This document shows positions 9,021 through 23,626 of a DNA stretch of 64,000 bases, piece by piece; positions within the stretch are counted from its first letter, which is position 1, and every line of letters begins with the position of its first letter. The position numbers and the translations under genes are program-made. The stretch is from Dethiobacter sp. (lineage in GTDB: Bacteria > Bacillota > Dethiobacteria > DTU022 > UBA8154). The notes beneath the pieces are model-generated. The model was not told the DNA's origin. It saw only the letters and a program-made list of their open reading frames with translations, and did not search any database. Location: assembly GCA_020725665.1 (NCBI GenBank), contig DYEO01000033.1, positions 5,398 through 69,397 of the forward strand, given 5' to 3'.

Positions 9021-9025
9021 TCTGT

Positions 9026-9223
9026 TCAGGTTCCTCTCCGGGTGCGATAAATGCCTGAATTTTTGGCCTTTGACTGATTGAATGTGAACATATTCTTCAA
9101 ATATGCAAGGTACTGAGGTTTAATCTCCACACCGTCATTGAGTAAAACCTGGCCTTCACTGCCGAGAATCGCTTTTCCCAAAAACATGCCGGGTTGAATT
9201 GAATCTAGGGAAACCCTGCGCAT
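9026..9223 (-). CDS. small hypothetical protein resembling the N-terminal module of HD-GYP-type proteins (possible fragment)
   Basis: 65-aa ORF. MRRVSLDSIQPGMFLGKAILGSEGQVLLNDGVEI resembles the common N-terminus of clostridial HD-GYP proteins. No HD domain follows. Confidence 0.25.
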   Translation of the reverse strand: MRRVSLDSIQPGMFLGKAILGSEGQVLLNDGVEIKPQYLAYLKNMFTFNQSKAKNSGIYRTRRGT

Positions 9224-9351
9224 ATGCTTCTCTCCTCGTTAGTACTACTAATTATTTAGTATATGAACGGTTTTGAATAAGATAGCTTTCGACATATTTT
9301 ATCATTATCCTTTTACATATAATGGTATTAATAGAAATATTTCAATCAAAC

Positions 9352-9374
9352 AAAAATACGGAGCCTTTCCTCCG
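9352..9374 (-). terminator. weak intrinsic terminator
   Basis: Minus strand: cggag-gaaagg-ctccg followed by tattttt, downstream of the 67-aa ORF. Confidence 0.3.
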
Positions 9375-9427
9375 CTTAGTTAAACAAAATGCATTTTTTG
9401 TTTTACTTAAAGATAGATTTACTTAAT

Positions 9428-9631
9428 TCATCTTTCCCCTTTGTATTTATAGTCGATAATACTTTCCCCGACAATCCAGGTGATTACCGGTAAAATGACG
9501 GCAACAATAAATTCCGGATCCAATTCCAAACCGTAAGCGTGGGACAAGTACATTGATAAAGCCGTTATCACTGCAAGCCAGAATTTGCGACTGAGGAGCG
9601 GATGTTTGCGTTCGTTCTTTTCCAGTGCCAC
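9428..9631 (-). CDS. small two-TM membrane protein (holin-like size and topology, function unknown)
   Basis: 67-aa ORF with two hydrophobic helices and charged termini. No family was recognised with certainty. Confidence 0.3.
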   Translation of the reverse strand: MALEKNERKHPLLSRKFWLAVITALSMYLSHAYGLELDPEFIVAVILPVITWIVGESIIDYKYKGER

Positions 9632-9791
9632 AATAACTCAACCCCCTTCCATCTTCACAGACAAACAGCTTTTCACCTTATCTTTTTGCAATTATTATAT
9701 GTGGTACTGTTAAAGAATGCCTCCCTACACATGTCGTTCTCCACTTACTCCACCTTGAGTATGGAAATCTTGTATTTTAGCAATTTCGGTA

Positions 9792-10691
9792 TTATAAAGC
9801 ACGCAGAAACTCGGGTCGCAGTTGACGCATATCCCCGCTGAGACGTACAGACTCCAGTATCTTCAATAGTTTTTCTTTATCCCGGGGAAGGGTTCCCTTC
9901 AGGGGGAGGTAATTGGATGCATGATTACAGCGGAAGACACAATTGCTCATTTCCAGGGGCCGCAGCATCATTTCTATTTCGGCAAGGATTTCCAGGGGAC
10001 CGGGTACGGCAAACTCTCCCTTGGCTACCTTCCTGGCCAGGGGTGTTCCGGGGCAGACCATTAAGGTGAGCAAGCCCAGGTATTCCGGATCAATCCGGTT
10101 TAACAGCGTTGCCGTATCCAAAGCATGTGCAGACATCTTTTCCATGCCACCAAGCCCGTTAATTACGGTAATGGAGAGAACAAGACCCGCCGCTCGGGCA
10201 CGCCGGCCTGCCGTAATAATTTCATCCCGCGTGGCGCCCTTACGTACCCAGGCCAGGAGTTCCTCGTTCCCTGTCTCCACACCCAGGTAGACAATGCCCA
10301 AACCGGCTTTTTTTAGTGCAGACAGCTCTTCTCCACTCTTGTTTAACAGGTCTTGCGGCGTTGCATAGATACCAACACGCTCAAGCGCAGGAAAAGTACT
10401 GTAAAGTTTTTGCAGCACACTTAACAGCTTTTCCGTATGCATGACCATGGCATTGCCGTCTGCCAGAAAAACCCGATCCACTCCCCACAGTAAACGGGCT
10501 GCCTCTTCAATATCCTCTTCAATTTCTGCAAGCTCCCGCTCCCGGAATTTCTTTTCCAGAAAAGAAACGCAAAAGGTGCAACGGTTATGTGAACAACCGA
10601 TCGTAATTTGCAAGATTAGGCTGTTTGCTTCACTGGGAGGGCGATAGATTGCTCCTTCATAACGCATCTCTGAAAACACCATCCTGTTCAT
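9792..10691 (-). CDS. radical SAM protein
   Basis: 299-aa ORF with a CSHNRCTFC (CxxxCxxC) cluster motif near the N-terminus. No SPASM-like Cys-rich C-terminus is present. Confidence 0.8.
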   Translation of the reverse strand: MNRMVFSEMRYEGAIYRPPSEANSLILQITIGCSHNRCTFCVSFLEKKFRERELAEIEEDIEEAARLLWGVDRVFLADGNAMVMHTEKLLSVLQKLYSTFPALERVGIYATPQDLLNKSGEELSALKKAGLGIVYLGVETGNEELLAWVRKGATRDEIITAGRRARAAGLVLSITVINGLGGMEKMSAHALDTATLLNRIDPEYLGLLTLMVCPGTPLARKVAKGEFAVPGPLEILAEIEMMLRPLEMSNCVFRCNHASNYLPLKGTLPRDKEKLLKILESVRLSGDMRQLRPEFLRAL

Positions 10692-10730
10692 TTGTTTTTT
10701 GTTATTTTACCATACTTAGATTATACTACA

Positions 10731-10762
10731 AAAAAACAACCGGATGTATCCGGTCGTTTTTT
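10731..10762. terminator. bidirectional intrinsic terminator ending the polysaccharide operon
   Basis: aaaaaacaaccggatgtatccggtcgtttttt: an accgga/tccggt stem flanked by an A run and a T run. Confidence 0.6.
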
Positions 10763-10891
10763 CCCTTTTTATTCAATCATTTTCGCATGCTTAGCCTGCC
10801 GCCTCTGGAACAACAGGTTTACCGCAAAAACTGGCCCCCGCATAAACCCAAAGCAAATTAAGTTAAGTAGTCCGCTGCCGCCCACGTAAGC

Positions 10892-13254
10892 TCAGTCTAC
10901 CTGTGAAAAAAAAGCGCTGACAATGGGAAAGCTCTCTTTTTGCCTCACGCGATACACGGGTTCTTCCCAGAAATCCCAACTGTAAAATGGTAATGTAAAG
11001 GCAAAACCATCCCCCTTAACGTTACGTGGGAGATAATCAAGGATCAGGCCATCCCATTCCCCGGGGCTTATGCTGTCTTCACCAACAAAATATTGCCCCC
11101 GCTCTTCCGGCAGGTAATAGGAAAGGGCACAGAAGTAGATGCCGGGGGTGGTGGAGGTCTGCAGGGTATCACGCAGAGGTGCATCACTGTATTCCCGCGG
11201 GTCATCCATTACCTGTCGTGTAGAAGGATCCGTAAAATTCAGAAGTGCCCAGGGCAGCCGCAGCTCCACCCTGTTTTTTCCCCCGTTGATATGTAACATG
11301 GCAAGAGAGTTGTAATCCTGACTTTCCGGGTTAAAATTGCCCCGGGGAAGAACGCTTTGATTGCTGTAAACAGGCGGGAAAACCTGCCCGTCCCGGGATA
11401 TGCGCTCCCGGTTGACCAGGGGGCGGATAGCCTCCCATTTTTCATTAGTATCTCCAGCCAATGCAGCCCCCCCGGCAGAGGAAAAACGCAGCTCCCCCCG
11501 GTTGTAGGATGAGGTTGCCAGCAGGTAAGCTTCTTCATCGCCGGAGATAATAATCAAAAATTCCAGCCCATGGGGCACCTTTTCACCTCGCAGCGGCAGG
11601 CGTGGATTCCCCCCACCCGGGTTATAAGTATCCAGGCCAATCATCAATCCGGTGCCGGGTGGCAACAAAGAACCGCTTACTCCGCCGGCTTGGTCGTTTC
11701 CATCTGCAACCAGTTCCAGACCGAGGTAGAGAAATGCTTCATTATGCTCAACAAGCAGGTTTTGCAGTACAACTGCCGGAAATGCTTGCGCCGCCTGTTG
11801 AGGCGCTGCCTGAGCCGGGACAGTTGCCTGCGTGTAAAGAGGTTCCCCCCTGAGAAAGGGTATGCCGGCCGGCTCCATGGCCAGCAGGCCGTAGTTTTGT
11901 TCGGGGCAGAGGGCGTTATGCCAGTAAGGGTTACGCTCGAAAGGCACAATATACGGCTCGGTAATCCACGTTTTCTTTACCCATTCATCGAACAGTTCAA
12001 AGATAACCCCGCCCGCATAACCCTCTTGTAAAACCGCATCCATCATACGCACAATCATTTCTCCCTGCTGTCTTTCTGTTACCCCCCCGTGATCGAAACC
12101 CTGGGGGTGGACGTGAGCCGTGGCCAAGCCGGTGGCCATGCCAAACTCCGCGACGAGCGCCGGGTAAGGGGGGTGCAGGGCCATAAAATCACGCAGGTAT
12201 CCCCCATAGCGAAGAATGCCTTCATGATCATGATAAGCATTGTACGAGGGCTCGTTGTTCATGAAATCGGGGTAATTGGGGTAGATATGATAACAGCCAA
12301 AAAACCCTGCCACATTCAACTCACCCTGCTGCAGGTGATTCGGATTAAGATCTGCCATATCATTATATTCCTTTGATTTTTCACATAGATGTTCCATTCG
12401 GTAGGGTGATCGAGAGGGTCGAGGGTTGGCCAGCTCACAAAAGAAACAGGATGCTGCCAGCCATAGTTTTCTGTACTGTAGGAAAGGGTATAATCACACA
12501 TCATGGCCAGCCATATTTCCGTCGCGCTGGCTCCGGCGACTGCCTGCACAAAGTCACCGTTATAAACCTTGAGGTTGCTGTTGATCTCGTCGTTTTGCAA
12601 AACAACGTGCGGCTCCATTTCATTACCGATCAGCAAGCCCAGCAGGAAAGGGGAAACGTCCACCCCATAGCTGCCAAAAGCCCTGCCGCGCCTGGCACGG
12701 ATTTCTGCATTGCCGTGGAGGGCGTCCACAACATGGCGAATTTCCTGCATGTAATTCTCCATATAATCGGGGTCAAAATAATTGCCACCTGGGATATCCT
12801 CGTCCGGCCAGATCTCCTGCAGCAGCCAGATTCTTTTATGCGGCGCCGCGGAGATATTATATTCCCGAAAAACCTGGTAAAATAACGGGTCCAATAACGT
12901 ATACAGGCGTATTGTATTGGCATTAAGAGCGGCCGCCTGCTCAAGCCAGAGCCGGTAAACATCCCTGTCCATGGGAAACTGGGTAAAATACTTGCCCGGC
13001 AGGGCCGTGCCGATATTCACTCCTTTTACAATGAACGGCATCCAGCCTTCACCTGCAAACACTTCAAAATAACGTCCACTGGTGCGGGCGGTCAGCATGA
13101 CCCCGCCCATTTCGGCAATCTGGGGCAAGAACTCTGGCACTTTGGAAGAACATCCGATAAATAACGCGCCGCCTGCAAGGATAGAGGCAACCAGCAGGAT
13201 AGCAGCAATAATGGTGCTTACAAAGCGTTTTGACTTTGTTTTCGTCGATTTCAT
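10892..13254 (-). pseudogene. clan GH-A-like glycoside hydrolase lipoprotein, split by a 1-nt frameshift (or sequencing error) at a homopolymer
   Basis: The 312-aa (12316-13254) and 501-aa (10892-12397) ORFs overlap in different frames. A lipobox LFIGC follows the signal peptide. The NE acid/base motif (LLIGNEMEP) is in the upstream ORF and the nucleophile-like AEFG is in the downstream ORF. Adding one A to the A5 run (T5 at 12377-12381 on plus) fuses them into about 787 aa. Confidence 0.55.
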
Positions 13255-13321
13255 ATGTCTGATCCTTTTTTTGTTTACTTCTCAGTAAAAATCTACTCCT
13301 TCTGCTATAGGAATGCCGGTT

Positions 13322-14089
13322 TCAGATACGCAGCCCTCTTCCGAGAGGGCATCTTGTTTTAGGCAGGAAACACAGCCGCAGGCTGCCATAAACCGTGGCC
13401 AATATTTTTAACTTGCTGGCGCTTTTTTTAATACCGTATTTAACCGTAAATGGTACTTCTTCTATTGTGCCGGCAAGGGGGGCCAGCTTCAAAAGCAATT
13501 CCACAGTTGCCGAGAAGGTCCGGGAAGCTAAAAAAGGCCATTTACCGGCGGCTAGGGCCTCGCTGACCAGCGAACTGCGGTATGCACGGAAGTTTACTGT
13601 GTAATCTGTAACGCCGCGCAGTGGGAATGCTATGCGGTAAAACAACTTCGCTCCAATACTCAAAAAGCTGCGCAAGAAGGGTACTCCGTCCTGTCCTCCC
13701 CCTTTTGTAAAGCGTGAAGCAATGGCAATATCGGCACCGGCACGAATCTTTTCAACAAGTTCGGCAATAATCTCTCCCGGGTGAGTGGCATCCGCATCCA
13801 TGGTAACAATACAAGTGGAACGGGCCTTAAGTGCCTCTGCAAAACCTGTGATAACCGCCTCCCCCAGGCCCCTGTTTTCCGTATGGGAAACAATGATTGC
13901 TCTGCCGCTTGCAAGGACCCATTTGGTAGCAAGATCGAGGGTATCATCACTGCTTCCATCGTTAACGATAATCAGGATGAAATCACACCCCGGCGGCATT
14001 GAAATTTCGTCAAACATTTTTTGTAAAGCAGGAATTGATTCTGCCTCGTTATACATGGGGAGAATTATTGCAACAAGCTCGTCCGGCAT
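13322..14089 (-). CDS. GT2 polyprenyl-phosphate glycosyltransferase (Dpm1/ArnC/CsbB-like)
   Basis: 255-aa ORF with ILPMYNEAESI, VNDGSSDDT and MDADATH (DxD) motifs. It is soluble-type, with no C-terminal TM bundle. Confidence 0.75.
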   Translation of the reverse strand: MPDELVAIILPMYNEAESIPALQKMFDEISMPPGCDFILIIVNDGSSDDTLDLATKWVLASGRAIIVSHTENRGLGEAVITGFAEALKARSTCIVTMDADATHPGEIIAELVEKIRAGADIAIASRFTKGGGQDGVPFLRSFLSIGAKLFYRIAFPLRGVTDYTVNFRAYRSSLVSEALAAGKWPFLASRTFSATVELLLKLAPLAGTIEEVPFTVKYGIKKSASKLKILATVYGSLRLCFLPKTRCPLGRGLRI

Positions 14090-14144
14090 TAATAATCACT
14101 CCAATTAATTAAATCTCCACTTTCTTTGAATATCTTATCGCCGG

Positions 14145-14510
14145 TCACTGGTGCAGAAAAAAAACTCCGGCAAGGATCAGAAAAAAACCAACAATTTTAG
14201 TTGCGGTAACCGCCTCTTTAAAAAAAAGGATGGAGAACAAAAATACAATAATATATGAAATACTTATACTCGGGTATGCTTTACTAAGCTCCATACCCGA
14301 AATTACCTTAATCCACAGGACCATACTCGAAATGAAGAATAAGATACCGGTTAAAACCCATGGATTGCGAAATATATGCATAAGCGTATATGGAATTGCC
14401 GGCCATTCCAGGCTGATCTCTCCCATTTTGAGCGTCGCAAATTTTAATAAAAGCTGTCCGCAAGCCCCCAGGAAAACGGAGATAAATAAGAGTATTAAAC
14501 CGGCTTTCAA
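14145..14510 (-). CDS. small 4-TM DMT/SMR-like protein (ArnE/ArnF-like candidate lipid-linked sugar flippase)
   Basis: 121-aa ORF with four hydrophobic helices and an EamA-like half-domain pattern. Its start overlaps the stop of the GT2 synthase gene by 4 nt. Confidence 0.6.
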   Translation of the reverse strand: MKAGLILLFISVFLGACGQLLLKFATLKMGEISLEWPAIPYTLMHIFRNPWVLTGILFFISSMVLWIKVISGMELSKAYPSISISYIIVFLFSILFFKEAVTATKIVGFFLILAGVFFLHQ

Positions 14511-15904
14511 ACTGTTTCGCCACCTTTGTTTTTATTTAAAAACGTACTTGCCCTGGTCAAACGGCGTTTATAACTCCTGAATATTTCCTTCAACTGATCA
14601 ACCGGATACTCCACCCGCCAGCTTTTTTCTTCTGTGAGCACCGTAATAATCCCGGCCAGGCGAAACCAATAAACCATATACCTGTAAAAAGGCAGGATGA
14701 AAACGATCCACCAAATTTTTTTGATTTCACAGCGGTATAAACCGGGGCTGTACTTGTAGACCATGGCAAAGCTGGCGGTATCAAGTATTATATAGCAGAG
14801 CAACAAAATAATCAGGGAGAAAAAAACCGTTTGCATGGAATAGCCGATAAAATACAGGAAAATCAGCAAAAACGTCCAGTTCAGGCGTATCAGCGCCAGC
14901 GTGTGATCGGAGATAAACATACGGCCGATATAGCTGCGCAGATCATGCCAGATGCTCCTTACTTCTTCCCCATGTATGGCGATGGCTTCAATCTCGCCCC
15001 GCTGCCAGCGCAGCCTCTGGGCATATAACTGAGAAATGGAATTGATCGGTTCCACATAGGCGACAGCATCGAGGACGCACCCGACGCGGCGTTTTTGCTT
15101 CTTTTGATCGTTTTTTATATTAAATGTCAGATCCGTATCTTCAGAAACCGTACGGTCCTGGTACATAAATGACTGCAGGAGGGCATCCCGGCGAAAAATG
15201 GAAAAAGCACCGGAAAGGGTAAACAGGGAATCTGTAATCTGTTGGTAGCGGCGGCCGATATTGAATGCGAGCATATATTCGATTATTTCACAATAGTTTA
15301 TCAGGTCAATGAAAGAATAACCTTCCCCAATTTCCTTATCCACCCGGATAAGCCCGGTGGCGGCAGCCAACGAATCGTCTGCTTCGAAAGCTTCCACTAC
15401 CCTCAGCACGGCATTTTTATCCAGCCACGTATCCGAATCAACGTTCATGATGTAAGTGCCGTGACCGTGGTAGATCCCGGCATTTAGGGCAATGGATTTT
15501 CCGGCCCGCTCCATGGAACTCCAGGTCGTCATCATCTCAGGATGCTCAAATTGAAATTCCTGAAATATTTCAAAGCTATTGTCTTCGCTGCCGTTGTTTA
15601 CGCAAACAATCTCAAGCTTATCCTTGGGGTAATTCTGCCTGAAAATGGAATTCAGGCACTGGTAAAGGGTATCTACAGAGTTATGAACAGGAACAACCAC
15701 CGTAACATAAGGGTAAAATTCCATGGCATCGGCATCCGGTGATTTTTCCTTCGCTTTACCGTTTTTCTCTTCGTGTAAAAACAAACCCATAAAACACTTG
15801 GCTGCTGCAGATACATCCACCAACAGCGGCGCCAAAAGCCAGATGCTCCAAAAGAGGAGCAGGCTGATACTTCTGTCCCAAAGAATTTCAAGCACGTTTA
15901 ACAT
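14507..15904 (-). CDS. processive family-2 glycosyltransferase (polysaccharide synthase; XrtG-associated type)
   Basis: 465-aa ORF with an N-terminal TM segment and a GT2 core carrying VPVHNS, DSD, SEDTDL and QRLRWQRGE (QxxRW) motifs. It also has a C-terminal TM bundle. Confidence 0.8.
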   Translation of the reverse strand: MLNVLEILWDRSISLLLFWSIWLLAPLLVDVSAAAKCFMGLFLHEEKNGKAKEKSPDADAMEFYPYVTVVVPVHNSVDTLYQCLNSIFRQNYPKDKLEIVCVNNGSEDNSFEIFQEFQFEHPEMMTTWSSMERAGKSIALNAGIYHGHGTYIMNVDSDTWLDKNAVLRVVEAFEADDSLAAATGLIRVDKEIGEGYSFIDLINYCEIIEYMLAFNIGRRYQQITDSLFTLSGAFSIFRRDALLQSFMYQDRTVSEDTDLTFNIKNDQKKQKRRVGCVLDAVAYVEPINSISQLYAQRLRWQRGEIEAIAIHGEEVRSIWHDLRSYIGRMFISDHTLALIRLNWTFLLIFLYFIGYSMQTVFFSLIILLLCYIILDTASFAMVYKYSPGLYRCEIKKIWWIVFILPFYRYMVYWFRLAGIITVLTEEKSWRVEYPVDQLKEIFRSYKRRLTRASTFLNKNKGGETV

Positions 15905-17087
15905 CTCCCCGTACTTTTTTGATCGAGGGCCGTGTTAGAATATACCAGTAGAGAATAACTATCACAGAGAAAAAGAAAATTCGCCCGAATAAAGTGTGCG
16001 CTACAAAGTTAAAGTTGCGTCCGCCCCAGTATATTATGGAGATAACCAGCATCAGGCGCAGAAGATTAAAAAAAACTAGTGTTGCGGTGCCAAACAGGAT
16101 ATAGTATACTTTCCTGCCGAAGTTGTAGGCTGGATAAAAGAGGACCAGCCCCAGCAAAACAGCAATTTCCAGTAATGCTGAACTTTCAATGTCGATATCC
16201 AGCGTCGTCCAGCTTTCATCAAGTTTTATAAAGACCAGGATTGTTCCGGGAGACTTATCAAAAACGTGGGTGACCACATTGAAGTAATTAAGTATATGGT
16301 GCAAGATCACTCCGGTTCTGTGCTCAACCAGATACTCAATAAAGGAACCCCTGATTACAAGGATAAAAATAAAGGTAAAACCGACAGCACCAAGGATATA
16401 ATAAAGGGGCCAGATGCGGTAACGGTAAAGGGCCGCTGTGGCCACCAGCCAGAATAAGGCAAAAATAATAATGCCGGACCTGTTTCTTACAACTACAGGA
16501 AAAGCTTTCCACTGTACATCGCCTTCAGCGGGCAGGCGGTCGCCCCTAAGCCCGGCAGCGGCGAGATAAAAGCGGATCGGCTGCGCCGGGTAAACATTTA
16601 ATTCGGCCATGGGCAGGTAAAATTCAAAGCCGCTGCCGCCGGCGTCGCTTCGCTGCCCCCACATTCCTTCGTACTCACTGATGAGACTCCCGTCGGATGA
16701 AAAAAGCTTTATCCCCACCAAACCATTGCCATTATCGGGAACATAGAGCAGTTCTGCAAACTTGTCGATGCTGTCTCCATATGACCCGTTGTCATCTATA
16801 TCGAGATAAAGCCTGCAAACGAAGTGTTGGCCCATAGCTATTGGTTTTTTAAGTTTTACAGCAAAGTATAATCTCTGTTCATTCTCGTTGGTACCCCAAT
16901 GCAGTGACTGAAATACGTTGTTCTTATCGGTTTCATCTTTAGGGCTTGTAACAGATGCCCGGCCGTTCCAGTCCTCAAGCTGTCCATCCAGATATATTTT
17001 CTGCATGAAAATTGATCCCGGCGGCCAGATATATATTAAAAACACAAGCGCCAGCGCAATGGCCAGCTTAGCTGCTAATCTGCTCAT
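15888..17087 (-). CDS. exosortase-family (XrtG-like) membrane protein with an N-terminal extracytoplasmic beta-rich domain; the canonical Cys is absent
   Basis: 399-aa ORF. Residues ~205-399 are polytopic and carry the exosortase-like NLLR and AHTLFGR motifs. At the place where exosortases carry CSG the sequence is DIDIESSALLE. The N-terminal ~190 aa has a signal anchor plus a YLDGQLEDW sugar-binding-like module. Confidence 0.55.
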   Translation of the reverse strand: MSRLAAKLAIALALVFLIYIWPPGSIFMQKIYLDGQLEDWNGRASVTSPKDETDKNNVFQSLHWGTNENEQRLYFAVKLKKPIAMGQHFVCRLYLDIDDNGSYGDSIDKFAELLYVPDNGNGLVGIKLFSSDGSLISEYEGMWGQRSDAGGSGFEFYLPMAELNVYPAQPIRFYLAAAGLRGDRLPAEGDVQWKAFPVVVRNRSGIIIFALFWLVATAALYRYRIWPLYYILGAVGFTFIFILVIRGSFIEYLVEHRTGVILHHILNYFNVVTHVFDKSPGTILVFIKLDESWTTLDIDIESSALLEIAVLLGLVLFYPAYNFGRKVYYILFGTATLVFFNLLRLMLVISIIYWGGRNFNFVAHTLFGRIFFFSVIVILYWYILTRPSIKKVRGDVKRA

Positions 17088-20000
17088 TTCTTTTCACATC
17101 TTTATCTAATCTTTTAAGAAAAATCAGGCCTCCAACCAACATTAACGGAGAAAGGAGGGAAAGGATTGAACCCCAAAGGTAAACGGGGGTTCGTTCCAGA
17201 ACTATTGTAATTTCATGTTCACCGGCAGGCAGATCCATACGCAGCAGATTTTCAAACGTAGTGTACGGCCAGGCATGACCATCGATCTCCACCTTGATCC
17301 CGTCCAGCGCAGCGACTGGGACAACTACATTAACATCCCGGTCGATACTGTATTTCATCACGTAACCGCTTTCCGTAGCCTGATAAGCATCTAGAGGAAT
17401 CAACTCTTCACAAAAATATTCCCTCTCTAAACCAAATATTTCTTCAATTATTTGCAGCGCTTGCGGGTCCTTGGTCAGGAAGGTGTGATATGAGAGATTG
17501 CCCCCCAAAAACCAAACTTTGTGTCCCTCAACCAGCTTGTATCCCAATACAGGGGCTTTAACACCATAATAATCGAAATATAGCTCCTCTGCATCCAACC
17601 CCTGTGGAACATATGTTTTCCAAAGCTCAAAGTCCTTCGGAGCAAAAGGTTTCAATAAAAAGCTCTTACCGCTATTGTCGAAAAGCTCGAGCTGGCCGCG
17701 CAGGGTAACCGTCTCACCATAAACACCTAAAAATTCAGGTTGCTTGGCCAATACGTTTTCCGGCAGCCCGGAGAGCTCAACAAAAACCTCACCACCGGCA
17801 GAGATATAATTACGAATAAGCTGTTCTGCTTTAGTTTTAGCCCACCATTCTGTTCCGGAAAGAATTATTTTAGGGTATTTTATTAAATCATCCAGTGAAT
17901 ACCTGTCAAGATAAGGGGACGTCCCCATCTCTACGTTGGGGAACTGGATGGCAATCGTTCCCGCATGTCTGCCGATAACCAGTGCGTCATTATTTTTCAC
18001 GACCAGGTAAGGAAAATCAATAGCCCCGTGCCAGAGGCTGATCTCATCAATATTTACAATATGCTCATAAGCCGCTTTTCCGGCCATCTCCGCAAAAATT
18101 TGCGGCTCCTCAATCACATCGTTTTTAACCAGCAGATCCGTTGCGCCAAGCAGCACACAGGATCGGAACAAAAAGGGATAATACTGATATTCCAGTCCCA
18201 TGTTAAGGAGCATAATGTTTTGTGAAGTTGTAGCCCCCTGCCAGGCCCAACCGAAAACCTGCTCCCTGCCTGCCGTTTCAGAAAACAGGAAGGAAGGGGC
18301 CGAGCCAAGGCGGCTTAAGTCAACAGTAGCAATGCGCCATCCGGGCGCAGCCTTCAGGTACTCCGTACCCTCCAGCAGTATATACGATTTGGCACGTGTA
18401 AAGGCAAGCAAACGGACGGAAAAAAAACAATCAATTAAAAACAAAAAAGCAAGCAGGCATATTATGACAACCTTTTTCAAACTGCCTGCTGAAAGTGAGA
18501 ATCTTTCTATAGAAGGGGAAAAAGCCATGCTTGATATGATTAGAGCCAGTGCGGCAAAACTGGAAAACCTAAGGGGCCAAAGCAGGTGGCTTAAAGGCAT
18601 AAGTAAAAAAAAGAGGCGCGCAGAAGGGAAAGTAATAATAACTAAAACCACGCCGCAAATTGCCAGGCTTTTTACCCAGGGCAACCTGGTACGCCATCCC
18701 AAACATGTAACACCAATGGCAAATAACAGGCTGACACCCCAGTAAAACGTTTCCCGATCAGAAAAACGATTAAAAGGATTAAGTGAAATTGCGGAAGGTA
18801 CAAACTGGACAACGGCACGGACAGCCTCCGGATTGATCACGGTAATTCCACCGCTAAGGCTTGGCAGCAACCACCAACCTGCAGATATAATGCCAACAAA
18901 AACAATAAAAAATCCCCGCAACAAATCTCTTAGCCGGCAGCCGCCAAAAGCCCAGAAAAACAGGGCGAATAAGGCAAGGCAAATGCAGTATACCGCCCCA
19001 ATCATGGCATGGCAGAGGATAACCACATGTATGAGTAAAACCGTGAGAACAACCGTCAGGGAAATCTTACGTTCTTCCAGAATTTTTAAATAAAGAATAA
19101 ACAACAATGGTAACAGGGCCGTTGCCAGGACCCGGGGAAGGTTCCCTTCAGAAAAAGCAACCCGCACGTTATCGATCCAGACCGACCAGATTATTCCTGC
19201 CAGGGTGGCGGGCCAAATGCCAATCCTGCGGGCGAAAAATAGCAGAGATAATCCTCCCAGGAGCGCGCAACCAAAAACATAATAGTTGCCGGCCATGAAA
19301 ATGTCGGTACTGAAAAACCTCAGCAGGGCAATCATGTAGTAGGGCAGCGGCGCCCAGTAGCGAAAAGGCTGGGCGCCATTATACCAGTATTCAGTGAACT
19401 GAGGAAAGAAATCGCCCTGCATGATTTGTTGAAAAAGAAATTCAGCTTTAAAAAGATGGCCCCAGGTATCGGACCCCCAGGGGTAGTGCAGTCTGAATTG
19501 GGGGGTAATGATCTGGTAATAAGCGATGAAGGCTATGAGCATTATTAACAGCGCATGTAAGGCGTAGCGGTAAGCAGGATAATCATAACTAGTTAACCCG
19601 GCGTTCAGGGTTTCATCAGGCTGAGCTGCCCGTTTCGCTGTTTGTTTTCTGCGCTTATCCCTCTGAGAGGATACACGTTTTTCTTTATCATCAGTGTTAT
19701 CTGTGATGTTATCTTTGGTAGCGGCAATTTCTTGTTCCGCCGCCACAGGGATATTGTCAAATTCAGGATTGCGCCGTGTTACCTCAATGCCTTTTGTGGG
19801 GGTTTCCCACACCGCCAAATTGCCCAGCACCAGGCCAAAATCCCGAAAAATATCCTCAAACCGGTTAAAGAAAACCATGGCCATGTTTTCTGTAGTCGGC
19901 TGAACGATATTAAAGGGATACTGCTCATTTAAAACCGTTTTTTCATAGCAGGTAATAACAGAATTAATTGCCTCCATGATGTTGGCAAAAGGTATCTGCT

Positions 20001-20502
20001 CGCTTTTTTCTGCAGGGATTTTTATTTTTATATGAACCTGCCAGGAATGGGCATGGACCGGCCCCTGTTTTTCACCAAAGACAACATAGTGCCGCGCGTT
20101 GAGGAAGGAAACAAGCTGAATAGTGTAGGCTGAGGAATCAACAAGGAATCCCTCCGCCTGCTCAGCAGGAATAATTCCACCGCGCTGCCCCATTGCCCCG
20201 GTACAAGTGATAACCGTTTTCCCTGTCGACTCGTTTGTCGGATCGTCACAAACCAGGCGTTGATAAAAAGAAAGTTCTTCTTTAACCTGCAAAATTTCTT
20301 CTTCAATCAGAGTTATCCTGGTTTTGCTGAGAGCAACCTTCGCCTCGGCATCCATGAGGATACGTCCCGCTTCCAAAGCGGCTTTTTGCTTTATCTCTTC
20401 CGCAAGCTCATTTGCTTCGAGGATTGTCCGTTCAATGTTTTTGCTTTCCTTTTCTTTCTCCTCAATGCGGGCACGCAAAGCATTACATTTTTCCTCGCTC
20501 AA
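17068..20502 (-). CDS. coiled-coil + QueD/6-pyruvoyl-tetrahydropterin-synthase-like domain fused to a large polytopic (PTPS-related, GT-C/YfhO-like) membrane protein
   Basis: 1144-aa ORF. Residues ~1-85 are a heptad-rich coiled coil. Residues ~125-245 read F..ARH..VHAHSWQVHI..LNE..PTTENMA..VWETPT and align by eye with QueD. A Lys/Arg/Asp-rich linker follows, then many TM helices (~310-720), a large exported domain, and a terminal TM helix plus basic tail. Confidence 0.6.
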   Translation of the reverse strand: MSEEKCNALRARIEEKEKESKNIERTILEANELAEEIKQKAALEAGRILMDAEAKVALSKTRITLIEEEILQVKEELSFYQRLVCDDPTNESTGKTVITCTGAMGQRGGIIPAEQAEGFLVDSSAYTIQLVSFLNARHYVVFGEKQGPVHAHSWQVHIKIKIPAEKSEQIPFANIMEAINSVITCYEKTVLNEQYPFNIVQPTTENMAMVFFNRFEDIFRDFGLVLGNLAVWETPTKGIEVTRRNPEFDNIPVAAEQEIAATKDNITDNTDDKEKRVSSQRDKRRKQTAKRAAQPDETLNAGLTSYDYPAYRYALHALLIMLIAFIAYYQIITPQFRLHYPWGSDTWGHLFKAEFLFQQIMQGDFFPQFTEYWYNGAQPFRYWAPLPYYMIALLRFFSTDIFMAGNYYVFGCALLGGLSLLFFARRIGIWPATLAGIIWSVWIDNVRVAFSEGNLPRVLATALLPLLFILYLKILEERKISLTVVLTVLLIHVVILCHAMIGAVYCICLALFALFFWAFGGCRLRDLLRGFFIVFVGIISAGWWLLPSLSGGITVINPEAVRAVVQFVPSAISLNPFNRFSDRETFYWGVSLLFAIGVTCLGWRTRLPWVKSLAICGVVLVIITFPSARLFFLLMPLSHLLWPLRFSSFAALALIISSMAFSPSIERFSLSAGSLKKVVIICLLAFLFLIDCFFSVRLLAFTRAKSYILLEGTEYLKAAPGWRIATVDLSRLGSAPSFLFSETAGREQVFGWAWQGATTSQNIMLLNMGLEYQYYPFLFRSCVLLGATDLLVKNDVIEEPQIFAEMAGKAAYEHIVNIDEISLWHGAIDFPYLVVKNNDALVIGRHAGTIAIQFPNVEMGTSPYLDRYSLDDLIKYPKIILSGTEWWAKTKAEQLIRNYISAGGEVFVELSGLPENVLAKQPEFLGVYGETVTLRGQLELFDNSGKSFLLKPFAPKDFELWKTYVPQGLDAEELYFDYYGVKAPVLGYKLVEGHKVWFLGGNLSYHTFLTKDPQALQIIEEIFGLEREYFCEELIPLDAYQATESGYVMKYSIDRDVNVVVPVAALDGIKVEIDGHAWPYTTFENLLRMDLPAGEHEITIVLERTPVYLWGSILSLLSPLMLVGGLIFLKRLDKDVKRNEQISS

Positions 20503-20606
20503 TCGTTTTTTTTTGAGCAGGTTTTGCAGTTCTTTTTTTAAATCATTTTTTGGATTACGGGAAGAAGGTAATTCTTGACCACGCGTAGAAATTGTAATCT
20601 GCTCCT

Positions 20607-21125
20607 TCAGGATGAATCCCTTTTACGTAGTATATTTTTAATAATTTCCGTTGATTTCTCATTTTCAAGCAAAGTCAGGTTGGGTGCATGCTCCTTGGGT
20701 AAAACGCCCACACTTTCAATGGAAAACCGGTATTCATCGAGCAGTTCTTTAAACTCCTGCTTAAAACGTTCAAGTTTTTCCTGCAACCGTTCCAATTCCT
20801 GTTTTTTATCCTGAAGTTCCTTTTCCGTTGTTTCCAACATGACCTTTGCCTGCCGGCGTGCTTCCTCCTCAAGCTGAAGCGCTTTTTTCTGTGCCAAAAC
20901 CATGACATCAACAATGGACTGTTCCCTGGAAATATAATTATCCAATTTTGACTGCAGAGCATTTACTTCTGCTTCAGACTGTTTCAATTCGGCCTTTGCT
21001 TTTTCAATGTCAGCCCGTAAAATGACAGTTTCCTCCTGGTAAACACTGTTAAGCCGGTTAATCTCATTTTGTACTTCTTCAGGTTTATAGCCGAACAATG
21101 CTTTTTTAAATGATTTGGCCATCAC
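20607..21125 (-). CDS. DivIVA-domain coiled-coil protein
   Basis: 172-aa ORF. The N-terminal FKKALFGYKPEEVQNEINRL matches the DivIVA F..a.rGY...eV motif. The remainder is coiled coil. Confidence 0.7.
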   Translation of the reverse strand: MMAKSFKKALFGYKPEEVQNEINRLNSVYQEETVILRADIEKAKAELKQSEAEVNALQSKLDNYISREQSIVDVMVLAQKKALQLEEEARRQAKVMLETTEKELQDKKQELERLQEKLERFKQEFKELLDEYRFSIESVGVLPKEHAPNLTLLENEKSTEIIKNILRKRDSS

Positions 21126-21200
21126 ATTCCCTCCGTTCCTGCCTGCAATACAGGCTATCCTTCTGCCCTTTATATAATATTTAACTTATTAAATTTCACC

Positions 21201-21236
21201 ATTTAACAATTCATTCCTTCTTAATAATTGTTAAAT
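21201..21236. promoter_or_regulatory. 10-bp perfect inverted repeat upstream of the DivIVA/polysaccharide operon (candidate operator)
   Basis: atttaacaatt-N14-aattgttaaat, located 75-110 nt upstream of the start codon at 21125. Confidence 0.25.
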
Positions 21237-21329
21237 TTTATTAAAATATTTTTACTTCGTGATTATTGATTATAGTATATGCTGCCATTATCAGGTAATG
21301 GAATAAATATAGATTATGTAGAAAAAAAC

Positions 21330-21368
21330 TTAGAAAAAAATAAAGCTTCCTCAGAGAGAGAGAGCTTT
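21330..21368 (-). terminator. intrinsic terminator after the MCP gene
   Basis: Minus strand: aaagct-ctctctctctgagga-agcttt followed by attttttt. Confidence 0.4.
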
Positions 21369-21418
21369 AATTATTTTTCTGAACTGGATTTTTACTATTA
21401 GTCAACCATTATCAAATA

Positions 21419-22561
21419 TCAATATTTGAACCTGTTCAATCCTTCTTCCAATTCGCTAACCATATTTTGCAGTTCGTTGGCGGCACTGGAAATTTCCCCC
21501 ATGGTTGCCGTCTGCTCCTCCACGGCAGCCGAGACCTCTTCGCTGCCGGCGCCAATTTCCTGGGCCGCTGCCGATACCTGCTCTATCTGCCGGGAAATAC
21601 CTTCCAGGCTGTCAATAACCGCCTTCAATACTTCTCCTGCTGAAATGACTACTTCCGTGCCGTCATTAACCTTTTCCACACCTTCATCCATCTTATCGAC
21701 GACACCCTGAATCTGCTCATGTATATCCTGTACCAGGTCAGTAATCTCTGAAGCGGAACTGGAAGATTGTTCGGCCAGTTTCCTCACCTCTTCAGCCACA
21801 ACGGCGAAACCACGACCGTGTTCCCCCGCTCTGGCAGCCTCAATTGCCGCATTTAATGCCAGCAAATTGGTCTGATCGGCGATCCCCTTAATCGTATCGA
21901 CTATCTTGCTGATGTTCTGCGCCCGGTTGCCCAGGATAACGACAACATCTTTCAAGCCGTTCACAATATGCGAAATGACTTGCATCTGGTTTACAGCGTT
22001 TTCCACAGCACTGTTTCCCGCATGGGCTTGTTGCGAAATTTTATTGCCCATTTCCGCCATTTCCAGGGCGCCACTGCTCAAGCGCTGGGCATTTCCGGAA
22101 AATTCATTGGCCGAAGCGGCCACTTCTTGCAGGGAAGCACTTATCTCTTCAGAAGATGCAGCCAAGGACTCGCTTGAAGTGCTGACCCTGTATATACCGG
22201 CTCCGATCTTTTTGAACATTTCCTGCAGCGAACGTTGCATCGTATCGAGCCCTCTTGCCAGATCTCCATACTCATCTTTGAGCTTGACCGCATAGTCGGG
22301 CACGTTTACACTAAAATCTCCTTTTGAGAGCACATTGACAATAAAACTTGTGGAGTCTTTAACATTTCTGATAATCGGTTTTGTGATATACACAATAATG
22401 GCCAGGGTAATGAGGACAATAAGCAGGGACCAGATGAACACCTCCCTGTAGATATTTTTTTCCAATACGGGCAACAAATAAACCAGGTTTAGCAGAATAA
22501 AGAGGATAACAGGAATAATCCCCAGTGCTATCAGCTTCATCTTGATACTGTTTTTAAACAT
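21419..22561 (-). CDS. methyl-accepting chemotaxis protein
   Basis: It has an N-terminal TM pair, a HAMP region and a conserved MCP signalling domain ([31 protein letters not shown]). I place the start at the internal ATG (MFKNS), which is preceded by aaaggag. Confidence 0.85.
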
Positions 22562-22658
22562 GCTTCGTTCTCCTTTCATTTTTAAGATAGCAAACTGTAC
22601 TTGCAAAACCTTGCCTGGAAATGAATTTTTATCGTAACTGCTCAGGGTCTTTTTACAA

Positions 22659-22742
22659 GCGAAGCTGCGGGGACGGTTCGAGCGTCTCCGTAGCGAAGCG
22701 AAGGACCGAAGGGAAGACGATGGAACCGTCCCCCTGCTTCGC
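22659..22742. repeat. 84-nt GC-rich extended hairpin / palindromic element
   Basis: The arms gcgaagctgcggggacggttc and gaaccgtccccctgcttcgc pair over about 20 bp with one bulge. They enclose a 43-nt loop with its own cgtct/agacg stem. Confidence 0.6.
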
Positions 22743-22957
22743 GCAGAGATAATTCGTCATATTAATTTATTTTCCTGCTTAATTACTAATGATTTTACAA
22801 AAGAAATAGCCGTTTAACAAGGCTCTGCAGGCTTTCCCTTCATTTTTCCATGAACCGGGCCATTTGTTTGAAATCCATTGCTATCACCTCCGGGATCACC
22901 ACCATATTTATATTTATCCATATTTTTGATAAAATAAATGGAAAGGAGGTTAAATCA

Positions 22958-23626
22958 ATGCTGCAGATAATGGAAGCTTTAAAGACCACTTATCCCGGGG
23001 CATACGCGGGAATGCTGCTGATGCGTTCTGTATCCAACCGGGAAGATCACCCGGCTCTGGAAAGCGCCAAGAAAAACCTGGAAAAAGAGCTACAGGTAAA
23101 GTATGGTAATTATGAGCGATCCGAACTGAAGGAGGTTACGCCCCTAAGGCAATATACCGCCTATTTCAAGCGTTTTAAGAAGACTTACCCGGTCCTGCTG
23201 CAGCTAGAAACGCTGGTATTTAAAGGAAGAGCTCTGCCTCGCGTCTCCACCCTCGTAGAGGCGATGTTCATGGCCGAACTGAAAAACATGCTGTTAACGG
23301 CGGGGCACGATTGGGATTCACTGCATGAACCTGTCAGAATTGATGTCTCAAGAGGCGATGAACAATATATCCTGCTTAATGGTGAGGGGAAAAAACTTCT
23401 TCCCGGCGATATGCTGATGGCAGACAGTCAGGGAATTATCTCCAGTGTTATCTACGGACCGGACCAGCGAACACGTATCAATCCCGGAACCAAAAATGTT
23501 TTATTCGCTGTTTACGGCGTGCCGGGCATCGCCAGGGAGGCGATACGGCACCACCTGCAGGATATCCGGGATAACGTGCTGCTCTTTGCACCACAGGCCA
23601 GGGCGGAGTTGCTGGATGTTTATTGA
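22958..23626 (+). CDS. B3/B4 tRNA-binding-domain protein (PheT B3/4-like, COG3382 type)
   Basis: The ORF matches the B3/4-domain pattern (..YTAYFKRFKKTYPVLLQLE.., ..LVEAMFMAEL.., ..GDMLMADSQGIISSVIYGPDQRT..). I place the start at the ATG at 22958, after the gaaaggagg SD. Confidence 0.65.
   Translation: MLQIMEALKTTYPGAYAGMLLMRSVSNREDHPALESAKKNLEKELQVKYGNYERSELKEVTPLRQYTAYFKRFKKTYPVLLQLETLVFKGRALPRVSTLVEAMFMAELKNMLLTAGHDWDSLHEPVRIDVSRGDEQYILLNGEGKKLLPGDMLMADSQGIISSVIYGPDQRTRINPGTKNVLFAVYGVPGIAREAIRHHLQDIRDNVLLFAPQARAELLDVY

Follow-up and report, generated by a model that had tools for sequence, protein, structure and literature searches.

A proposed XrtG-type envelope glycopolymer locus in a Dethiobacter genome with the presumed substrate fused to an exosortase-family domain that lacks the catalytic cysteine

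Exosortases are widespread, and the attachment targets of their substrates are almost entirely uncharted. The system built around the exosortase XrtG is catalogued in NCBIfam by four component types (TIGR03110, TIGR03111, TIGR03112 and TIGR04145) with the canonical gene order CTERM protein, XrtG, family 2 glycosyltransferase (GT2), and with a protein that joins a 6-pyruvoyl-tetrahydropterin-synthase-like (PTPS-like) domain to a PF10131 membrane domain of the GT-C clan encoded upstream. A 2026 study lists the CTERM protein as part of the complete XrtG system and gives the order CTERM, Xrt, GT, GT for the locus of L. plantarum (PMC12854382). Here we analyze a gene cluster of this type on the minus strand of a 64,000-nt stretch of a Dethiobacter sp. 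genome (GenBank assembly GCA_020725665.1, contig DYEO01000033.1, positions 5,398 to 69,397), hereafter the window, whose own numbering is used throughout. The cluster is a genuine envelope sugar-polymer operon of the catalogued XrtG type, with all four component types apparently present in the canonical order and the PTPS/PF10131 gene upstream. Unlike the catalogued system, its CTERM-type protein and XrtG form one polypeptide, the catalytic cysteine is replaced by serine, TIGR03110 falls 2 bits short of its cut-off, TIGR04145 matches relatives alone and below cut-off, and the locus adds a DivIVA protein, an ArnF/GtrB-like pair and a gene for a GH-A lipoprotein. An earlier reading of this DNA made without database searches (the sequence-only reading) had described the XrtG trio as recognised yet functionally uncharacterised, which agrees with its entry in NCBIfam and with the searched literature, where no functional study was found; its further statement that no sorting-signal substrates are known is outdated, given TIGR04145 and the listing of the CTERM protein in the complete system (PMC12854382).

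The ArtA/PGF-CTERM and exosortase A/PEP-CTERM systems share with the window locus a polytopic exosortase domain, a tripartite sorting signal, a link to glycan-biosynthesis genes and conserved arginine and histidine residues. Cys173, Arg214 and Arg253 are essential in the archaeosortase ArtA (PMC9263693), whereas the window protein carries Ser302 in place of the required cysteine and many of its orthologues carry Asn. The window locus also departs from sorting by ArtA and exosortase A in that its signal is internal and covalently continuous with the enzyme, and in that there is one dedicated target rather than many. The protein in which these differences meet is composed as follows (aa, amino acids; TM, transmembrane).

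15888-17087, minus strand: 399-aa exosortase-family protein (TIGR03110, TIGR04178)
16473-17087, minus strand: N-terminal half of the 399-aa protein (residues 1-205), a signal-anchor and a beta-sandwich of ~170 aa, homologous to separate Firmicu-CTERM-like proteins
16410-16520, minus strand: internal segment resembling a tripartite sorting signal, with the motif GDVQWKAFPVV, a TM helix and the basic cluster YRYR (from alignment to the separate proteins)
15888-16472, minus strand: XrtG exosortase-family membrane domain (residues 206-399; TIGR03110, TIGR04178)

An exhaustive search with a profile built from 25 orthologues of the 399-aa protein splits it into two parts, of which residues ~207-397 match canonical XrtG proteins of ~200 aa and residues ~8-225 match separate proteins of ~225 aa. 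The latter carry what looks like a cleavable signal peptide and share the ~170-aa domain (LDGxFxDW ... DxNxNGxY ...); their C-terminus is made of 'DRxPDxGDIQWSPIPILG', a TM helix and KKRR. For the XrtG part, TIGR03110 (XrtG) is by far the best exosortase model, with 100.6 bits against a cut-off of 102.75 over residues 206-391 only, and the exosortase/archaeosortase signature TIGR04178 passes with 44.2 against 23 bits, in keeping with the exosortase-family call of the sequence-only reading. The window's GDVQWKAFPVV, TM helix and YRYR align with the C-terminal GDIQWSPIPILG, TM helix and KKRR of the separate proteins. Exosortase and archaeosortase sorting signals share this three-part build of motif, TM helix and basic tail; in the window all three elements are kept and run directly into the XrtG domain, and W193, F196 and P197 are invariant in the fused family.

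Among the homologues of the N-terminal domain, 13 of 27 match the Firmicu-CTERM model TIGR04145 at E <= 0.01, all of them below its cut-off (best E 1.8e-6, 28 bits against 50); TIGR04145 is the only family to recur. Unfused loci (L004, L005, L031-L036) hold a small beta-sandwich gene immediately 5' of XrtG and overlapping it, in the order PTPS, GT-C, small protein, XrtG, GT2, which matches the published arrangement in L. plantarum (PMC12854382). Homology, gene position and signal architecture all support the reading of the 399-aa gene as a presumed substrate fused to its sortase, and a search of all six frames of the window with the N-terminal domain profile found no second substrate gene. In one unfused locus (L034), tandem paralogues of the beta-sandwich/CTERM type (9229-9894 and 9962-10672) lie upstream of a Cys-type XrtG, so unfused systems can have more than one target. 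An AlphaFold model of the fused protein places the beta-sandwich at residues 44-193 with a moderate pLDDT of 77.3. A specific carbohydrate-binding module or lectin identity for this domain found no support in a fold search with the model, and Pfam was also blank.

Along with the fusion, the XrtG half has lost the catalytic cysteine. Its position is taken by Ser302 (codon 16184-16182, AGT) in the motif DIESSALLE, as against the canonical IECSGLLE. Among the 62 unfused XrtG proteins retrieved, the residue is Cys in 53, Ser in 8 and Thr in 1, whereas the ~399-aa fused family has Ser in 19 of 29 proteins, Asn in the other 10 and Cys in none; counted by locus, 16 of 37 fused copies carry Asn. The codons trace a one-step path, being TGY in the unfused sister loci, AGY for every fused Ser and AAY for every fused Asn, while a separate unfused group with Ser uses TCC in L035 and L036 and AGY in L004 and L005. 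In a rough neighbor-joining tree, which has no support values, the fused proteins form a single clade, sister to the Cys-type unfused XrtGs of Syntrophomonadaceae-like genomes, and Asn arose more than once within it. Across 25 fused-family sequences N341, H364, G368 and R369 are invariant and R344 nearly so. The conservation of R344, H364 and R369 suggests that the XrtG-like domain is under selection, probably not as a Cys transpeptidase, and most likely the fused beta-sandwich is no longer cut off.

We tentatively propose, as a possible history, a single ancestral fusion in Peptococcaceae- or Syntrophomonadaceae-like Bacillota by which an exosortase captured its sole substrate, the sorting signal became a permanent linker and the cysteine was lost (TGY to AGY Ser to AAY Asn), leaving an XrtG-like pseudo-sortase that would dock the beta-sandwich onto a DivIVA-positioned complex of GT2 synthase and GT-C protein. 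If true, this would be the first sortase-family enzyme turned structural subunit of a polysaccharide machine, and the XrtG 'substrate' would be a working part of that machine, not its cargo. In the sources searched, the substrate-sortase fusion is new, as is its coupling to cysteine loss.

The setting of the fused gene was compared over 31 loci from GTDB species genomes, gene order being judged wherever the flank was present. The order PTPS/GT-C, XrtG (with or without the beta-sandwich), GT2 is invariant in this set, so that the gene neighborhood described in the sequence-only reading recurs. The 399-aa fused architecture forms only 27 clusters at 90% identity. The loci come from metagenome-assembled genomes (MAGs) labelled Peptococcaceae, Syntrophomonadaceae and Dethiobacter, and the cultured Syntrophomonas wolfei subsp. 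methylbutyratica and Desulforamulus putei; unfused forms occur in S. palmitatica and in Dehalococcoidia- and Anaerolinea-type genomes. The nearest cluster, from a Dethiobacter-labelled MAG (L006), has 66-78% amino-acid identity to that of the window. Elsewhere (P0160, P0191, P0202, P0249 and P0226), a beta-sandwich protein with its own signal peptide and C-terminal signal is fused instead to the PTPS/GT-C end. The products of three neighboring genes are thus repeatedly fused pairwise, which argues for one working assembly, or physical complex.

The window locus and its unfused Cys-type sisters in Syntrophomonas palmitatica-like genomes make a natural pair for the study of QWSPIP-type cleavage, of the role of the beta-sandwich at the synthase and of a GT-C protein with a PTPS-like domain, and with cultured carriers available (S. 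wolfei subsp. methylbutyratica, S. palmitatica, Desulforamulus putei and Anaerolinea thermolimosa) such questions are directly testable. In Desulforamulus putei DSM 12395 (NZ_FQUY01000025.1, L029 at 8780-9958) the fused XrtG gene is 5'-shortened, with only residues ~103-397 left, and a 392-aa reverse-transcriptase open reading frame (ORF; PF00078, 87.6 bits) stands just upstream, which looks like a retroelement insertion into the beta-sandwich half. The MAG contig JAGVAS010000056.1 carries two copies of the cluster (L020 and L007) ~16 kb apart, the second of them decaying, with a truncated PTPS/GT-C gene, a frameshifted fused-XrtG gene and hydrolase remnants; for a locus of Bacillota type the contig's Desulfovibrio label looks mistaken, through an error of either binning or labelling.

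Upstream and downstream of the fused gene lie the components to which we assign sugar transfer and positioning.

17068-20502, minus strand: 1144-aa protein with a predicted TTG start, comprising an N-terminal coil (weakly DivIVA-like), a PTPS-like T-fold, a basic linker, a GT-C-clan polytopic domain, a large extracytoplasmic region and a C-terminal TM helix (PF10131, PF01242, TIGR03112 and hydropathy)
19777-20112, minus strand: PTPS-like domain (residues 131-242), predicted cytoplasmic, with conserved H138, H150, H152, E205 and E233 (PF01242)
17485-19365, minus strand: PF10131 'PTPS_related' membrane domain, GT-C-clan glycosyltransferase-like, with Asp345/His349 just before it in the first outside loop (codons 19470-19456)
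14145-14510, minus strand: 121-aa protein with four TM segments, ArnF/ArnE-like, of half-size EamA/SMR type (ArnF, ArnE and EamA models)
13322-14089, minus strand: 255-aa soluble GT2, GtrB/ArnC/DPM1-type-like (PgfS, ArnC-type and PF00535 scores)
20607-21125, minus strand: 172-aa DivIVA-domain coiled-coil protein (PF05103)

The 1144-aa protein matches PF10131 with 522 bits over residues 380-1006 and PF01242 with 50.3 bits over residues 134-242; TIGR03112 passes at 70.0 bits against a cut-off of 69.35, and the DivIVA model gives 18 bits over residues 3-77. A hydropathy scan reveals a basic linker before the first TM segment, about 8 hydrophobic segments and then a non-hydrophobic region of ~400 aa. 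PF10131 is placed in the GT-C clan (CL0111), alongside the STT3, PMT and ArnT-like families (PMC7801869). Of 38 homologues, at least 93% conserve P341, D345 and H349, the latter two of which (D46 and H50 in the numbering of alignment A5) are invariant in that alignment. The first outside loop after TM1 is the usual site of the GT-C catalytic acid, and we infer that D345/H349 is the putative catalytic position of this domain. Searches of the PDB with the GT-C domain, both as a single sequence and as a profile, returned nothing. The C-terminal TM helix and basic tail of the 1144-aa protein were considered as a sorting signal and rejected, there being no NCBIfam match and no match to the N-terminal domain profile; in the GT-C::beta-sandwich fusions of other genomes the C-terminal GT-C helix is followed by the substrate's own signal peptide, and the helix is taken as an ordinary anchor.

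The sequence-only reading had called this product a QueD/PTPS-fused polytopic protein. The fusion stands, as PF01242, TIGR03112 and PF10131 all match, but the identity as a QueD or PTPS enzyme does not. The domain resembles the T-fold enzymes in its PF01242 score, its His triad and Glu205: the metal-binding triad positions H138, H150 and H152, and E205 in the segment PTTEN, are conserved in 28 of 28 loci, and E233 is Glu in 27 and Asp in 1. In contrast, the QueD model reaches 31.3 bits against a cut-off of 89.25, and in comparison with P. horikoshii PH0634 (2dj6) the His triad aligns but the catalytic Cys before HxH is absent and Lys-Thr stands in for the Asp-His pair. In every case the domain is either part of the GT-C membrane protein or encoded directly beside it. 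It is best read as a probable cytoplasmic metal-binding T-fold module with a different ligand, not as a pterin or queuosine enzyme.

The two small genes further along had been called a DMT-like protein with four TM segments and a Dpm1-like GT2, and both descriptions fit the profile scores. The 121-aa protein, which has four hydrophobic segments, scores 70.7 bits with ArnF (cut-off 99), 29.6 with ArnE and 27.2 with EamA (cut-off 28.2), and is a candidate polyprenyl-phosphate-sugar flippase. The 255-aa GT2 matches PF00535 with 83.6 bits, has no TM segment, and scores 62.9 bits with PgfS (cut-off 500), 59.8 with the ArnC-type model (cut-off 529) and 47.6 each with the dolichyl-P hexose transferase and PpgS models, all below the equivalog cut-offs. 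The enzymes behind these four equivalog models, of which the dolichyl-P hexose transferase is archaeal, attach sugars to polyprenyl phosphate. GT-C clan membership of the membrane domain in the 1144-aa protein provides these two 'decoration' genes with a concrete partner, and the encoding of a polyprenyl-P sugar synthase-like GT2, a small flippase-like protein and a GT-C protein in one operon points to a putative Gtr/Arn-type extracytoplasmic glycosylation module. The same combination of a sugar-synthase-like GT2, a flippase-like protein with four TM segments and a GT-C-clan protein characterizes the GtrA/GtrB/Gtr-type GT-C, ArnC/ArnE-F/ArnT and CsbB/GtcA/YfhO modules. The window locus differs from these in that its matches stay below equivalog cut-offs, in that its GT-C protein is an uncharacterised PF10131 member with a cytoplasmic PTPS-like domain, and in that many related loci are without the GT2/flippase pair. 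In the sources searched, the reading of PF10131, small GT2 and ArnF-like protein as a three-part glycosylation module within an XrtG locus is new. In several related loci the GtrB-/ArnF-like pair is followed downstream by another PF10131 paralogue that lacks the PTPS domain (L001 at 13865-15583; L022, L024 and L030 at ~15.4-18.1 kb); the window carries the PTPS-fused copy only.

The first gene of the cluster encodes a protein that matches the DivIVA family PF05103 over residues 3-128 with 41.9 bits against a cut-off of 28, as the sequence-only reading had anticipated, and at least 14 of the 31 loci encode a DivIVA homologue directly 5' of their PTPS/GT-C gene. This DivIVA association is likewise new in the searched sources.

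The gene directly downstream of the fused exosortase encodes the enzyme to which we assign polymer synthesis.

14507-15904, minus strand: 465-aa GT2 of the membrane-embedded synthase type, PgaC/IcaA- and NodC-like (TIGR03111)

TIGR03111 passes with 370.2 bits against a cut-off of 363.95, and the motifs DSD (156-158), EDTD (255-258) and QRLRW (296-300, the QxxRW motif) are flanked by TM segments, as expected of the processive GT2 that had been proposed. In the profile searches on the products of the cluster, TIGR03111 and TIGR03112 pass and PF10131, PF01242 and DivIVA match, and the family calls of the sequence-only reading stand. Like PgaABCD/IcaADBC and BcsA-BcsB, the locus combines a membrane-embedded GT2 bearing D, DxD, ED and QxxRW motifs and C-terminal TM helices with a gene for an outer-face hydrolase, and its TM-anchored, outer-face, beta-rich partner beside the synthase may be likened, by analogy, to BcsB. 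It differs from these synthase-dependent systems in the score of its synthase with PgaC_IcaA (136 against 422.3), in having no PgaD/IcaD, PilZ domain or deacetylase in the window, and in a hydrolase family that is new to Pfam, NCBIfam and the PDB at the sequence level.

Taken together, these components suggest the following mechanism. The TIGR03111 enzyme would polymerise a nucleotide sugar at the inner membrane face and thread the polysaccharide out through its own TM bundle. The 255-aa GT2 would load a sugar onto undecaprenyl phosphate, the ArnF-like protein would flip the lipid-linked sugar across the membrane, and the GT-C domain, by way of Asp345/His349, would transfer the sugar on the outer face to an acceptor that may be either the nascent polymer or the beta-sandwich domain. 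The beta-sandwich, presumably a former XrtG substrate, would remain anchored next to the synthase as a permanent subunit on the outer face, docked in the membrane by the XrtG-like domain. DivIVA and the DivIVA-like coil of the GT-C protein would place the assembly at curved membrane (poles or septa), the PTPS-like domain would serve as a cytoplasmic metal-binding module, and the GH-A lipoprotein, which is disrupted in this genome, would cut or remodel the polymer. We give roughly even odds (a probability of about 0.5) that the locus is a derived, fused XrtG-type envelope glycopolymer machine working in this way.

Several observations weigh against the proposal. The window's own beta-sandwich has no direct match to TIGR04145, its relatives match only under the curated cut-off, and a fold search of the fused-protein model gave nothing below E 0.026 and generic beta-sandwiches only. 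Some unfused systems whose substrates are separate (L004, L005, L035 and L036) likewise have Ser in place of Cys, so that Ser might serve as the nucleophile and cleavage of the fused protein might persist; the conservation of R344, H364 and R369 would be expected of a binding site that is kept, and equally of an activity that is kept. For the synthase, the nearest named family, the poly-beta-1,6-GlcNAc synthase PgaC_IcaA (TIGR03937), gives 136.4 bits against a cut-off of 422.3, too few to name the polymer, and NodC gives 69.9. The ArnF/GtrB pair is present in only about one third of the loci, in some of them beside a second GT-C paralogue, so its link to the PTPS-fused GT-C protein is not exclusive. 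The role given to DivIVA is read from its family alone, and the searched literature yielded no experiment on any XrtG system.

A different view of the GT-C domain is that it is a PMT/TMTC-type protein O-glycosyltransferase acting on the beta-sandwich/CTERM protein in a surface-glycoprotein system, with the GT2 'synthase' building or extending the glycan of that protein rather than a free exopolysaccharide. This view draws on the grouping of PF10131 with PMT, STT3 and TMTC in the GT-C clan (PMC7801869), on the proteins in which GT-C is fused directly to a beta-sandwich precursor (P0160, P0191, P0202, P0249 and P0226), and on the established knowledge that exosortase and archaeosortase substrates are classically glycoproteins (PMC9263693). 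In some relatives from outside the Bacillota (P0170, P0176 and P0226), moreover, the beta-sandwich is preceded by long Thr/Pro/Ser(/Ala)-rich low-complexity linkers typical of O-glycosylated regions. The window protein, however, has no Ser/Thr/Pro-rich linker, the TIGR03111 enzyme has the full layout of a processive synthase with C-terminal TM helices, and the GH-A hydrolase family is fused elsewhere to GT2 synthases and a CE4 deacetylase, which points to a polysaccharide. We consider a glycoprotein system rather unlikely.

The fate of the beta-sandwich allows another explanation, in which the 399-aa protein acts as a sortase upon itself: together with the conserved Arg and His, Ser302 would form a serine-type transpeptidase that cuts its own beta-sandwich at the internal signal and transfers it to polymer, lipid or wall, the fusion merely ensuring 1:1 delivery. 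It would account for the fused family retaining the QW.PFP motif, TM helix and basic cluster, together with R344, H364 and R369, as invariant or nearly invariant features, and for the Ser of unfused systems that have separate substrates (L004, L005, L035 and L036); ArtA, according to a reference cited in PMC9263693, is able to process an internal tripartite signal. Against it stand the 10 of 29 fused proteins and 16 of 37 locus copies with Asn, a residue unfit as such a nucleophile, whose genes are nevertheless intact and conserved. No fused member has kept Cys, and Asn has multiple origins within the fused clade of the neighbor-joining tree. For these reasons we regard self-processing as unlikely and prefer the reading of the XrtG-like domain as a structural dock.

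The last gene of the cluster raises the question of whether the locus is functional in this genome. It is broken into two ORFs.

12316-13254, minus strand: GH-A-like lipoprotein gene, first fragment (312 aa), with the lipobox LFIGC and the barrel strands up to the acid/base segment GNEMEP (from alignment to orthologues)
10892-12397, minus strand: GH-A-like gene, second fragment (501 aa, -1 frame), with the nucleophile segment VAEFG and C-terminal beta-rich domains (from alignment to orthologues)
12371-12390, minus strand: frameshift site, where one base has dropped out of the intact frame, most likely in the A5 run at 12381-12377

From 13254 to 10892 the gene spans 2363 nt, which is not a multiple of 3. 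The addition of one A to the A5 run at 12381-12377 restores a 787-aa protein, and with this repaired query 720 homologues were found at E <= 0.001, the best of which (P0002, 805 aa) is 63% identical over 100% of the length. Intact orthologues are 750-805 aa long and continuous through the junction. The 312-aa fragment matches them up to '...DHPTEWNI' and the 501-aa fragment from 'KSKEYNDMADLN...' onward; the two fragments thus abut in one orthologous polypeptide and are one gene by descent. Programmed frameshifting at 12390-12371 was rejected, as the upstream frame has no X XXY YYZ heptamer and the A run is just 5 long. The frameshift may be an assembly error in a short homopolymer or a true pseudogene, and the full-length GH-A lipoprotein is probably not made in this genome.

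Searches of Pfam, NCBIfam and the PDB with the lipoprotein sequence gave no match beyond a chance PDB hit at E 0.31. A model of the orthologue P0002, rather than of the window's own protein, predicts a (beta/alpha)8 barrel of clan GH-A with beta-rich C-terminal domains (pLDDT 87.2, pTM 0.89), for which Foldseek gives a probability of 1.00 to the barrels of GH157, GH2, GH5 and GH72 (E down to 7.7e-12, 9-16% identity). The family-invariant Glu residues in G-R/N-E-L/M-E-P and V-A-E-F-G form a putative catalytic pair, and the window has both, on different ORF fragments. The hydrolase-like family is large, with the 720 matches noted above, and is without a Pfam entry; its definition, and the finding that it is broken in this genome, are new in the sources searched. 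Members from other phyla carry a CE4 polysaccharide deacetylase (P0003) or a chitin/PNAG-type GT2 synthase (P0076 and others) in the same polypeptide, which ties the family to synthase-made polysaccharide. Among the 31 loci the gene is intact in about seven, at varying positions, and present as remnants in two (L009 and L020). The sequence-only reading had identified a GH-A-like lipoprotein within a complete machine for synthesis, decoration and trimming; the clan assignment holds for the family as modelled from P0002, while the window's own gene is frameshifted into two ORFs, so that with the 'trimming' gene in this state completeness is not demonstrable.

Together, the frameshifted hydrolase and the Cys-less exosortase could be taken as signs of loss of function, the locus being in decay or inactive here. 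Beyond the documented frameshift, the repaired hydrolase has 3 of 87 family-invariant residues altered (R209N, E215V and T219N), all beside the putative acid/base Glu, as compared with a leave-one-out mean of 0.56 and maximum of 4; at 12576-12650 (repaired residues 209-219) N-E-M-E-P replaces the R-E-L-E-P of all 52 relatives compared, and these changes hint at relaxed constraint. The hydrolase remnants in L009 and L020 and the degenerate second cluster in L020 point the same way. However, the other six genes are full length relative to orthologues at 66-78% identity (L006), about 25 species keep the Cys-less fused form, many of its residues being invariant, most intact loci do without the hydrolase gene, which is hence dispensable, and the frameshift could be a short-homopolymer assembly error. 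Decay of the whole locus is therefore improbable in our estimate.

The remaining features concern the layout and boundaries of the cluster.

10731-10762, minus strand: intrinsic terminator closing the cluster, hairpin ACCGGAT-ac-ATCCGGT followed by T7 on the minus strand
21126-21418, minus strand: AT-rich intergenic stretch of ~290 nt between a chemoreceptor gene stop (21419) and the DivIVA start, presumed from its position to be the promoter region

The ORF listing places the minus-strand gene string from 21125 to 10892 exactly where the sequence-only reading had put seven packed genes, with overlaps of exactly 20 nt (1144-aa gene and XrtG gene), 17 nt (XrtG gene and TIGR03111 gene) and 4 nt and remaining gaps of 104, 55 and 67 nt; only the count needs amending, the seventh gene being two ORFs. 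The terminator it had proposed is a clean hairpin with T7, is also called on the plus strand and can act in both directions. A pattern scan found no terminators between genes inside the cluster. Chance adjacency of unrelated transcription units, which promoter and terminator scans no better than shuffled sequence (27 against 22.3 +/- 4.8 and 25 against 18 +/- 4.8; no enrichment, and not used as evidence) neither prove nor disprove, is very improbable given the overlaps of 20, 17 and 4 nt and the fusion of adjacent components in other genomes, and is already contradicted for the core by the same order in 31 loci across Bacillota and Chloroflexota.

A c-di-GMP or other riboswitch was considered and is unsupported, Rfam giving nothing credible in 9000-23500 at E <= 1. 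Over the whole 64 kb no Rfam family reached its gathering score, though the window is core chromosome; ORF translations across 1-64000 include smc, ftsY, ffh, rpsP-rimM-trmD-rplS, fab genes and plsX. A run of A9 at 20506-20514 stands three bases before the TTG from which the 1144-aa gene is read, a start that no obvious Shine-Dalgarno sequence precedes, and the closest orthologue of the 1144-aa protein (L006) aligns from residue 1, its ORF opening 13 codons further upstream. In a JGI relative (L001, 1-4756), two PAS/GAF histidine kinases and a response regulator with an HD-type domain (PF13487) lie upstream of the cluster; nothing comparable adjoins the cluster in the window, where the upstream neighbor is a methyl-accepting chemotaxis-like gene at 21419-22606.

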